This document shows positions 18,001 through 21,000 of a stretch of 64,000 nucleotides of DNA, in pieces; within the stretch, counting starts at the first letter, position 1, and every line of letters starts with the position of its first letter. The position numbers were made by a program. This stretch comes from Escherichia coli. GTDB lineage: Bacteria > Pseudomonadota > Gammaproteobacteria > Enterobacterales > Enterobacteriaceae. The stretch lies in the NCBI RefSeq assembly GCF_045037415.1, contig NZ_CP173438.1. One strand, 5' to 3'.

Positions 18001-21000
18001 ACTCCTCCGCCAGCACAACGTCATGAACGCCTGCACCGACGCTATCGACAGCGACCCAGGAGCGGTCCTTCATCAGCTGTTGGTTATCATCCAGTTGGGT
18101 GATCAACAACAGGTTGCTGCCGCGCAGCTCATCGCACTTTTGCGTGGCGACGACATGTCCGGTTACCTTTGCGAGAATCATCGTTTTTATCGCCTTATCT
18201 CAATGAATTACTTGCCTAAGCGCTCAAGCACCTGGCGGATGACTCGCTCAACGTTCTGCTCGTTGATCTCGCCTTCGGGATCAGTCGTTGCCACAGTAAA
18301 ACGATCATCAGCAGATGTGGTTGCCGGGGCAGGGGAGGTGAAGCGGGCATCGTCAAGAATGCTGCGATGCGGATCCACTATCGGCGCGGCGATGGCTGGC
18401 TGCGGTTCTGCACGGCTACCCGGAGAACGCAACTCATCGATGGAACGCACGCCATAGCCCACTTTACGAATGTTGAGCAGATTCATTGGCCCGACGTTAT
18501 CGGAAGAGGAACCACCACCTACCGCACCGCATCCAAGCGTCAGGGCGGGGGTAATGTTAGTGGTAGCGCCAATACCGCCAAGCGCCGCAGGGGTATTGAT
18601 CAGAATGCGGTTAACCGGTTTTTCAAGGCAGAATTGACGGATCACATCCTGGTTGCGGGTATGGATCACCAGTGTGTGGCCCAGACCTTCGTTAGTCAGC
18701 AACTCCACCACGCGGTGGCAGGCAGCTTTCCAGTCCTCTTCGATATACAGACCAAGAACCGGGCACAGCTTTTCACGTGAGTAGGGGTTTTTGTGAGAAA
18801 CGGTAGTTTGTTCGGCAATCAGTACTCTGGTACTGGCGGGCACACAAAAACCGGCCATCTGGCTTAAATACAGTGCGGTTTTTCCCACCACTTTCGGGTT
18901 AATCGTGCCGTTCGGGCGCAGCAGCAGAGCTGCCATTTTTGCCGCTTCATCTTCGTTCATAAAGTAAGCACCCTGAGCTTCCAGTTCGCGGTGTACTTCG
19001 TTGTAAATGCAGCGTTCAACAATAATCGACTGTTCAGAAGCGCAGATCACACCATTATCGAAGGTTTTGCTGGTGATGATATCTTTCACCGCATGGTGGA
19101 TATCCGCACTGCGTTCAATAAATGCCGGACCGTTACCAGGACCACCGCTGATGGTCGGTGTGCCAGAAGCATATGCTGCTCGTACCATTCCTTCACCACC
19201 GGTAGCCAGAATCAGCGAAACATCTTTGCTATGCATCAGTTCCTGGGTTGCTTCCAGCGTGAGCTCGGTTACACCATCGACAATACCCGCAGGTGCACCA
19301 GCAGCTTCTGCGGCACGCTTAACGACTTCTATCGCCTTCCAGCTACACTGACGTGCGCCGGGATGCGGAGAGAAAATAATCGCATTACCGGCTTTCAGGG
19401 CGATCAGCGTTTTGTAGAAGATGGTGGAAGTCGGGTTGGTTGACGGCACCAGGGCGCAAATCACACCCAGCGGCACGCCCACGTCCATCACTTTTTGCTG
19501 TTGATCGTCATGAATGATGCCGACGGTCTTCATATCTTTGATGGCATCGTAAACACGCAGCGAGGCGAAACGGTTTTTCAGGACTTTATCCTGCCAGTTG
19601 CCGAAGCCAGTTTCTTCTGCGGCCATTTTTGCCAGTGCTTCAGCGTGGTGTGCTGCTTCCTGGGCCACGTTTTTCACGATGGCGTCGATTTGCTGCTGCG
19701 AAAAAGTGGCCATAATCGCTTGCGCTTTTTTGGCGTTACGCACCAGCACCCGCGCGTTCTGACGGGAGCGCAAATCGGTATCCAGTTCAATCATGAGTCT
19801 ATCCTTCATCAGACTAAAAGAGTGCAGACGGGGCGTGCCCTGTCAGGTCATGCTTTATGCTGCGACGCGATTTTTTCGATGTCGTTATGCGGGCGGGCGA
19901 TGACACGGGAGGTCACCACTTCACCGATACGTCTTGCTGCTTCAACACCGGAATCCACCGCGGCATTCACTGCGCCAACGTCGCCTTTTACCATCGCGGT
20001 GACTAGGCCAGAGCCGACGTTTTCATAGCCAATCAACTCAACGTTGGCGGCTTTACACATCGCGTCTGCCGCCTCAATACAGGCCACCAGACCTTTGGTT
20101 TCGATCAGACCAAGCGCTTCTCTCATTATGTTTTCTCCGGTTAATCGGTAATTTTGTAGTGCGAGACAATCTTGTTGATGTCATTGTGTGGACGCGCGAT
20201 AACCAACGACGTCACCACCTCGCCAATGCGCTGTGCGGACTCAACACCGGAATCCACCGCCGCTTTTACTGCGCCGACATCACCTTTCACCATTGCGGTA
20301 ACCAGACCAGAACCGACGTTTTCATAGCCAATCAACTCAACGTTGGCGGCCTTACACATCGCGTCAGCTGCTTCAATACAAGCCACCAAACCTTTGGTTT
20401 CAATCAGACCTAATGCATCACCCATGTTTCTTCCCTCCGGCCTTAAGCTTTATGTTTAATAACGATTTTGTTGATGTCGTTGTGAGGACGCGCGATAACC
20501 AGCGACGTCACCACTTCCCCGATGTGCTGTGCGGACTCAAGTCCAGAATCGACAGATGCTTTCACTGCGCCAACGTCGCCTTTCACCATCACGGTCACCA
20601 GACCAGAGCCGATGTTTTCATAGCCAATCAGTTCAACGTTGGCGGATTTACACATCGCATCCGCTGCGGCAATACAGGCCACCAGGCCTTTGGTTTCGAT
20701 AAGCCCTAATGCATCACCCATGGTGATCTCCTCAGAACAGGTTTTGTGATTCAGGAAAACCGTCCGTGACACAGCGTTAACTCACGGAAGCGGCGTTCGA
20801 ATGTCACTATAGAGCTCATGGAATTTTGTGGAATTTAAATCTGCTGACAGCAATGATTTAGAATTAAATTCTGAAATTTAGCTTTCAATACACTCTGATT
20901 TATGTATTTGTGCTGGAGTGGTGGGGAGGATTTTGTTTTTAATAATGCGCTTTTTGGCGTATTTTTTTCGCCGGGTATGTTTGTTGCTAAGTTGCTAAAT

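Follow-up and report, generated by a model that had tools for sequence, protein, structure and literature searches.

What does a disordered tail do on an enzyme that is encoded among the shell genes of a bacterial microcompartment (BMC)? This question is raised by cutF, an aldehyde dehydrogenase gene in the choline-utilisation (cut) locus of a 64,000-nucleotide stretch of Escherichia coli DNA (contig NZ_CP173438.1 of assembly GCF_045037415.1), hereafter referred to as the window. A preliminary reading made from the nucleotide sequence alone (the sequence-only reading) had proposed that the C-terminal extension of the CutF protein is a cargo-targeting peptide. The Cut microcompartment converts choline into trimethylamine in uropathogenic and gut Enterobacteriaceae, and the packaging of its enzyme core is therefore of medical and engineering interest. 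As described below, the tail was found to contain two conserved DxRF motifs, to have been lost together with the shell and the N-terminal domain of the choline trimethylamine-lyase CutC, and to exist also as a stand-alone gene. We consider it probable, at roughly 60%, that the tail is a core-assembly and encapsulation module that binds CutF to CutC, most likely to the N-terminal domain (N-domain) of that enzyme.

Identity of cutF and boundaries of its C-terminal tail

The gene at 18208-19809 on the minus strand is cutF of the E. coli choline-utilisation (Cut, GRM2-type) microcompartment. The mechanically defined open reading frame (ORF) at these positions encodes 533 residues and showed a Pfam Aldedh match. 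Against the NCBIfam model TIGR02518 (acetaldehyde dehydrogenase (acetylating), EutE type), the protein scored 713.2 bits over residues 5-460 of its 528-residue form, with a curated equivalog cut-off of 620.1 bits, and core residues 10-462 aligned with the Listeria structure PDB 3k9d with an E-value of 2e-174. These matches bear out the aldehyde dehydrogenase with a C-terminal extension that the sequence-only reading had placed here. Its upper coordinate, 19809, lies about 15 bases too far, because the ATG at 19794 is preceded at the right distance (8 nucleotides upstream) by the Shine-Dalgarno sequence AAGGA and is the start in the RefSeq annotation; no such sequence precedes the ATG at 19809. 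The true start is likely to be 19794, five codons downstream of the mechanical ORF start. From that start, the coding sequence (18208..19794, minus strand) specifies a coenzyme A-acylating acetaldehyde dehydrogenase of 528 residues, whose catalytic core comprises ORF residues 6-462 (18424..19794, minus strand), as delimited by the 3k9d alignment and TIGR02518. The segment V254-I255-C256-A257-S258-E259-Q260 was invariant among 24 CutF orthologues, and from general knowledge of the aldehyde dehydrogenase family we take C256 to be the catalytic nucleophile. The protein is WP_000570989.1, the accession listed for CutF in the cut locus of E. coli 536. The cutF DNA is 100% identical to that of E. 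coli chromosomes and was found in 321 of 5,426 complete E. coli genomes, in all of them at an identity of at least 99%.

With the core reaching residue 462 in the 3k9d alignment, the extension measures 71 residues (463-533; 18211..18423, minus strand) rather than the 80 or so that had been estimated. Because 3k9d terminates at the core boundary, the tail lies outside the dehydrogenase fold, and the possibility that it forms part of that fold was rejected. As judged from this boundary, the composition and an AlphaFold2 model, the tail is predicted to be a disordered linker holding two motifs, followed by a helix. The linker had been described as Pro/Ala-rich, and residues 463-514 indeed contain 9 Ala and 8 Pro among 52 residues; Thr and Asp (six each) and Ser are present as well. 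The full-length CutF model was built from a 24-sequence alignment and had a mean predicted local distance difference test score (pLDDT) of 67.7, and because this quality is mediocre, it was used for disorder and helix calls only. In this model, nearly the whole linker had a pLDDT below 50, motif 1 (484-490) was at about 50, and a helix was predicted at residues 517-532 with a pLDDT of about 77.

The terminal amphipathic helix EINEQNVERVIRQVLERL (residues 514-531; 18217..18270, minus strand) was delimited from the hydrophobic moment and AlphaFold2, and it is a peptide already published as resembling an encapsulation peptide (EP) (Kalnins 2020). The helical hydrophobic moment of the last 14 residues (520-533) was 0.835, the highest among all 14-residue segments of CutF, and one face of the helix is formed by V520, V523, I524, V527, L528 and L531. 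For residues 516-531, the moment was 0.654, a value reached by 1.8% of 20,000 shuffles of those 16 residues. The amphipathic C-terminal helix expected by the sequence-only reading was thus recovered by both helical-moment analysis and structure prediction, together with a disordered linker. A PDB sequence search with the tail alone gave no match, and neither Pfam nor NCBIfam held a family covering the CutF tail or the stand-alone DxRF-repeat proteins described below.

Two conserved DxRF motifs in the linker

The linker had been regarded as a plain spacer, a view that does not hold, as two conserved DxRF motifs sit inside it. The orthologue alignment revealed motif 1, SILDDARF (residues 483-490; 18340..18363, minus strand), with the consensus S-I-[LF]-[DE]-D-x-R-F, and motif 2, DDRF (residues 501-504; 18298..18309, minus strand), with the consensus D-[DN]-R-F. 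The tail peptides around the two motifs are RSILDDARFTS and TSADDRFTV, and a third tail peptide is EINEQNVERVIRQVLERLGK. Overall, the CutF tails of Enterobacterales, Aeromonas and Vibrionaceae consist of three conserved islands (motif 1, motif 2 and the terminal helix) amid spacers of variable length. The S, I, D, R and F residues of motif 1 were invariant in 58 of 58 distinct parsed tails, and the D, R and F residues of motif 2 were invariant across the 59 copies in these tails. Among 24 CutF orthologues, the catalytic core had a mean pairwise identity of 0.79, compared with 0.75 in motif 1, 0.81 in motif 2 and 0.60 in the helix, and the three spacers reached no more than 0.11-0.14; by this measure, the DxRF motifs appear to be conserved as strongly as the catalytic core.

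The copy number of motif 2 varied from one to three among the orthologues. In particular, the orthologue P0092 has a single motif, yet its locus is complete, and Photobacterium lipolyticum CutF and P0116 carry three motifs each. Across 36 GRM2 loci, the D.RF pattern occurred on average 2.0 times per CutF, was absent from CutC, CutD, CutO, CmcC, CmcD and CmcE, and averaged less than 0.1 in CutH and in a 221-residue protein of unknown function. EUT2-type dehydrogenases, from loci with EutA, EutB and EutC, have a C-terminal amphipathic helix behind a short linker that lacks DxRF. Full-text literature searches returned nothing on the DxRF motifs or the stand-alone repeat proteins, although a mention in Zarzycki 2015 or Herring 2018 is possible; as far as we have checked, the motifs and the repeat proteins are undescribed.

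Loss of the tail together with the shell and the CutC N-domain

A scan for related loci, with one genome per species, returned 50 loci, and 36 of these combined shell genes with a long CutC. A CutF tail of the same layout was found in all 36 shell-bearing loci except for one apparently frameshifted copy in Serratia rubidaea (L033). In this copy, from strain NCTC12971, the tail stops after motif 1 (...SARPMTVSAP), and another S. rubidaea sequence, P0088, is full-length; the shortening is probably a frameshift or an assembly error.

The long form of CutC is the hallmark of GRM2 (type II cut) loci, which are defined by a CutC N-terminal extension of approximately 330-350 residues, and the N-domain is specific to that locus type. 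In the window, the CutC ORF has 1140 residues (1128 from the RefSeq start), and its N-terminal non-catalytic domain (RefSeq residues 1-328; 15744..16727, minus strand), delimited by a Pfam PFL-like match, is the candidate partner of the CutF tail. Because this domain matches positions 161-369 of the PFL-like family (E = 4e-49), it can be read as a partial duplicate of the glycyl-radical-enzyme fold. An 1150-residue CutC construct is present in PDB 9f3w/x/y, and since only about 791 of its residues are resolved, there is no experimental structure of the N-domain; our literature search found no paper citing these entries.

Two cut loci without shell genes provide a natural deletion, namely those of Pantoea coffeiphila (L030, 10004-15015) and Erwinia sp. 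JUb26 (L032, approximately 9896-15019). Both also lack the alcohol dehydrogenase, the phosphotransacylase and the hypothetical protein, and both keep the same regulators and transporters, in the order regulators, tail-less CutF, N-domain-less CutC, CutD and transporters. Their CutF is 80-82% identical and their CutC core 90-92% identical, and the two loci are clearly derived from the GRM2 locus type, with every microcompartment part lost. Their CutF terminates with ...GVRSIEDLRQ, which is the core boundary (457 residues in P. coffeiphila), and their CutC starts at the start of the E. coli catalytic domain (825 residues in P. coffeiphila). The CutF tail and the CutC N-domain were therefore lost together with the shell. 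Additionally, a Priestia homologue (L041), which has no shell genes beside it, carries no tail. These comparisons support a microcompartment-specific role for the CutF tail.

Stand-alone DxRF-repeat proteins

A profile of 24 CutF tails was searched against 1.84 billion representative proteins and a word-indexed collection. Most matches were C-terminal fragments of split or partial cutF genes, and four were distinct small proteins without a dehydrogenase domain: P0156 from Endozoicomonas ascidiicola (139 residues, E = 5e-7, four D.RF copies; gene at L055 10001-10420), P0160 from a metagenome (169 residues, E = 1.4e-13, nine copies; L056 2761-3270), P0161 from a metagenome (186 residues, E = 3.2e-12, eight copies; L057 1126-1686) and P0164 from a Tara Oceans metagenome (147 residues, E = 5.7e-4, eight copies; L058 417-860). 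All of these proteins start with [ST]SIF[DE]D[PK]RF, continue with D.RF copies spaced 6-32 residues apart, and end in CutF-like amphipathic helices (KVQQIVTEVLKRL, EVKQIVKAVLQRL, EIKRIINEVLRRV and EIITRIVKEVLNRI). The same module as the CutF tail thus exists as a stand-alone gene. A search of the word-indexed collection with P0156 returned only its own species.

In the three contigs in which the surroundings were readable, the stand-alone gene occupies the place that cutF holds in E. coli: it immediately follows three BMC-H genes and immediately precedes a long-form cutC. These contigs showed no nearby gene for a dehydrogenase, a pentamer, an alcohol dehydrogenase or a phosphotransacylase. The long CutC of the stand-alone loci has a full-length N-domain with 49-53% identity and a core with 80-84% identity to E. 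coli CutC, and the ratio of the two identities resembles that of canonical loci at similar divergence. A ribosome-binding site was recognisable for two of the stand-alone genes and not for one. We also observed in E. ascidiicola a second, short CutC-like glycyl radical enzyme of 808 residues (L055 15681-18107) adjoining the long CutC; it is 62% identical to the CutC core and lacks the N-domain.

Comparison with encapsulation peptides and scaffold proteins

The EP-like C-terminal helix of cutF is a known feature. Kalnins et al. (2020; Nat Commun 11:388) called the peptide NEQNVERVIRQVLERLG of Klebsiella pneumoniae GRM2 CutF an EP-like elongation and also named an EP-like helix at the CutH N-terminus. 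The K. pneumoniae protein is an orthologue from the same locus type; the closest Klebsiella homologue that we found is 89% identical to the E. coli protein, and the terminal 17-mer NEQNVERVIRQVLERLG is identical. The Klebsiella GRM2 locus also shares the CmcE elongation, the CutH N-terminal helix and the CutC N-domain. Because this peptide had already been named, and in part tested, in Klebsiella, the helix in itself is not novel; the one described there is essentially the one described here, whereas the DxRF motifs of the linker are unmentioned in that work, in which the tail was not dissected.

An EP is defined as an amphipathic helix of approximately 18 residues at one terminus of an enzyme encoded in a microcompartment locus, to which a variable linker joins it (Kinney 2012; Aussignargues 2015). 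A survey of 362 sequences showed that BMC aldehyde dehydrogenases carry an EP at either terminus, depending on the locus type, and that C-terminal EPs are common on these enzymes (Aussignargues 2015). The predicted architecture of the CutF tail fits this definition. The tail is at the C-terminus of an enzyme whose gene lies between cmcABC and cmcD in a BMC locus; the helix is amphipathic, as indicated by the moment of 0.835, the shuffle fraction of 0.018 and the AlphaFold2 helix at 517-532; and the homologues from non-BMC loci (L030, L032 and the Priestia L041) stop at the core boundary. As for the poorly conserved linker, the CutF spacers are hypervariable in length and sequence (0.11-0.14), and the motifs embedded in them are not (0.75 and 0.81).

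Upon comparison with the EPs of other metabolosome aldehyde dehydrogenases (N-terminal in PduP and EutE, C-terminal in EUT2 and GRM1), we found the tail to be similar but not identical. The helix of about 18 residues, the variable linker and the absence from non-BMC homologues are shared. In contrast, the CutF linker is approximately 50 residues long and holds two motifs conserved at the level of the core, where the definition expects poor conservation, and the EUT2 comparators have short linkers without DxRF. Furthermore, the PduP EP is sufficient for targeting, whereas the sufficiency of the CutF EP is doubtful (Kalnins 2020).

The carboxysome scaffolds CsoS2, CcmM and CcmN, the last with a C-terminal EP, are disordered proteins with repeated short motifs and a terminal element that binds shell or cargo, and the stand-alone DxRF proteins have the same layout. 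They differ in that the DxRF motifs have no sequence similarity to those of the carboxysome scaffolds and belong to a catabolic, glycyl-radical-enzyme organelle; in E. coli, moreover, the module is fused to an enzyme, has only two repeats and has an inferred partner.

The closest experimental evidence comes from Klebsiella (Kalnins 2020). On its own, full-length CutF failed to co-migrate with recombinant cmcABC'+D shells, whether or not cmcE was present, and co-migration was observed only when full-length CutC was co-expressed, the CutC N-terminal domain (1-335) being required. CutF also moved CutC into larger aggregates when CutC was full-length, but not when its N-terminal part had been truncated. 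The authors concluded that CutC is the adaptor and that the role of the EP-like sequences of CutF and CutH in the recombinant system is "limited purely to crosslinking", and they noted that EPs might work only under native conditions and that GRM2 loci lack the BMC-T proteins implicated in EP-mediated loading in Pdu. The reading of the tail as an autonomous shell-targeting tag is not supported by this experiment, which comes close to the test suggested in the sequence-only reading and did not yield simple shell targeting. What stands of the proposal that the tail is a cargo-targeting peptide is its EP architecture and its link to the microcompartment.

Proposed role of the tail and alternative explanations

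We propose that the tail may comprise three functional islands, two DxRF short linear motifs and the terminal helix, set between freely evolving disordered spacers. Because the Klebsiella orthologue was reported to be a tetramer on the basis of its elution pattern and a cited crystal structure, four helices and eight DxRF motifs would be exposed on each CutF particle. As multivalent stickers, these elements would link CutF with CutC, probably through the non-catalytic N-terminal domain of CutC, and would thereby condense the enzyme core, with the CutC catalytic domain anchoring the core to the shell; the terminal helix might additionally self-associate or touch the shell in native organelles. 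Such a multivalent particle fits the crosslinking behaviour reported in vitro. Which elements contact CutC, the DxRF motifs or the helix, and the partner of each, we infer from the following comparisons. The tail partner should be among BMC-H, CutC and CutD, because these are the only conserved neighbours in the reduced stand-alone loci. The CutC N-domain is favoured because it was required for the CutF-CutC interaction in Klebsiella, is specific to the GRM2 locus type, was lost together with the CutF tail, and has been kept wherever the stand-alone module was found.

A further proposal, to which we give somewhat less than even odds, is that the DxRF motifs are a new class of multivalent sticker for GRM2 core assembly, most likely docking on the CutC N-domain, and that the tail is a scaffold module in its own right, encoded in some marine bacteria as a stand-alone, CsoS2-like protein of 139-186 residues that replaces cutF. 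If this were true, catabolic metabolosomes, from which dedicated adaptor proteins are said to be missing, would include one with a dedicated scaffold protein.

Several points weigh against binding to CutC. The tail, the CutC N-domain and the shell were all lost together, and this pattern does not tell one candidate partner from another. The putative stand-alone proteins are drawn from a single named species and three metagenomic contigs, and their loci, which have no pentamer gene, could be decaying. Finally, docking was modelled in AlphaFold2 by joining the CutC N-domain to the CutF tail through a 30-residue Gly/Ser linker, using a paired alignment of 20 loci. The N-domain folded in this model (pLDDT 75-94), and the confidence of the tail was no higher than before, at 40-47 for the DxRF motifs and about 72 for the helix (77 in CutF alone). 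Because pLDDT was the sole read-out and the alignment lacked depth, this model is weak negative evidence, and its outcome may reflect either an absence of docking or a limit of the method.

An alternative explanation is that the tail is a classical EP, whose helix binds the luminal groove between BMC-H hexamers and alone targets CutF, with the rest serving as a spacer and the DxRF motifs as accessories. The architecture agrees with the EP definition (Aussignargues 2015), the helix is conserved and amphipathic, experiments on Pdu support the binding of EPs in the groove where PduA hexamers tessellate, and EP function restricted to native conditions was thought possible (Kalnins 2020). However, Klebsiella CutF, whose helix is identical, failed to co-migrate with recombinant cmcABC'+D shells, irrespective of cmcE, and GRM2 loci are devoid of the BMC-T proteins implicated in Pdu loading. 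A plain spacer would also not explain why the DxRF motifs are better conserved than the helix and are amplified in the stand-alone proteins. We therefore regard a classical EP as unlikely, while giving it some weight.

The roles of the two elements might instead be exchanged, with the DxRF repeats binding the shell, as the repeated motifs of CsoS2 do in alpha-carboxysomes, and the helix bundling with the helices of CutH or other proteins to condense cargo. BMC-H is a possible partner for such repeats, as the reduced loci conserve only the three BMC-H genes, CutC and CutD as neighbours; EPs are known to self-associate into small bundles that drive cargo condensation, as shown for PduP, and carboxysome scaffolds work through multivalent repeats in disordered protein. 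This arrangement seems quite improbable to us, because recombinant shells failed to capture CutF on its own, which has two DxRF motifs in each chain, and the CutC N-domain was needed for the interaction that was observed (Kalnins 2020). Nothing specific speaks for a tail unrelated to the microcompartment, such as a tag for solubility, regulation or degradation of the dehydrogenase, and this reading is highly implausible: the tail is missing in the examined homologues that are shell-less or not of a BMC, is kept in the 36 shell-bearing loci bar the apparently frameshifted copy, and occurs as a module beside shell genes without any dehydrogenase.

On the reading that the tail binds CutF to CutC, the DxRF pair and its stand-alone relatives would offer a mutable handle on CutF recruitment via the CutC N-domain in a shell that lacks BMC-T. 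The repeats also suggest that metabolosomes, like carboxysomes, can use scaffolds of the sticker-and-spacer kind.

The cut locus and neighbouring features in the window

The neighbourhood of cutF is the 16-gene choline-utilisation locus of uropathogenic E. coli, with the gene order cmcABC-cutF-cmcD-cutO-cutC-cutD-cmcE-cutH. Along the coding strand, a TetR-family regulator, a winged-helix regulator and a FidL-like protein are followed by three BMC-domain genes, cutF, the EutN/CcmL pentamer, an iron alcohol dehydrogenase, cutC, cutD (a radical SAM protein), a fourth BMC-domain gene, the phosphotransacylase, a hypothetical protein and two DMT transporters. The BMC-H shell genes cmcC, cmcB and cmcA (19848..20721, minus strand) lie directly upstream of cutF, and the shell pentamer gene cmcD, of the EutN/CcmL family, occupies 17924..18181 on the same strand. 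The locus has the composition of the GRM2 type. It encodes a choline trimethylamine-lyase with an N-terminal extension and its activase, and, where the type is defined by BMC-H and BMC-P genes without BMC-T and without PduS, PduT or GrpU, we found four single-domain BMC proteins and one EutN/CcmL protein, with no tandem-BMC or iron-sulphur shell protein among the locus ORFs.

The shell protein at 11866-12330 had been noted for an unusual low-complexity C-terminal tail, and this description was confirmed. The protein is CmcE, a BMC-H protein with its BMC domain at residues 3-78 followed by a tail of about 65 residues (11869..12063, minus strand) that ends in KKGKKA. Comparison of more than 30 orthologues showed a tail that is hypervariable both in its length and in its sequence, contains much Pro, Ala, Glu and Val, and usually ends in KKGKKA or a close basic variant (RKGKKA, KKGKKS or GKKEPK). 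The C-terminal elongation of CmcE was already described by Kalnins 2020.

The phosphotransacylase CutH begins with an EP-like helix, MIDALLQEKITTRL (11828..11869, minus strand), whose Klebsiella equivalent was likewise named in that work. At the end of the cut operon (10572-11237, minus strand), we observed the conserved 221-residue protein mentioned above, which matches no Pfam or NCBIfam model, starts with an amphipathic helix, MTEQQIDTIVNLILQRLQ, resembling that of CutF, and is present in nearly all shell-bearing loci and in none of the shell-less ones. Kinship of the CutF helix with the N-termini of this protein or CutH was not supported, as a profile hidden Markov model of the helix gave nothing significant against the ORFs of the window (E = 34); because of this result, the resemblance is taken to be physico-chemical only.

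Adjoining the cut locus, an ALIL pseudoknot (Rfam RF01497, 117.6 bits) was found at 24285-24401 on the minus strand, in a transposase of the IS3 family. This element, other insertion sequence remnants and the presence of the locus in 321 of 5,426 E. coli genomes suggest that the cut locus lies in a mobile or variable region.

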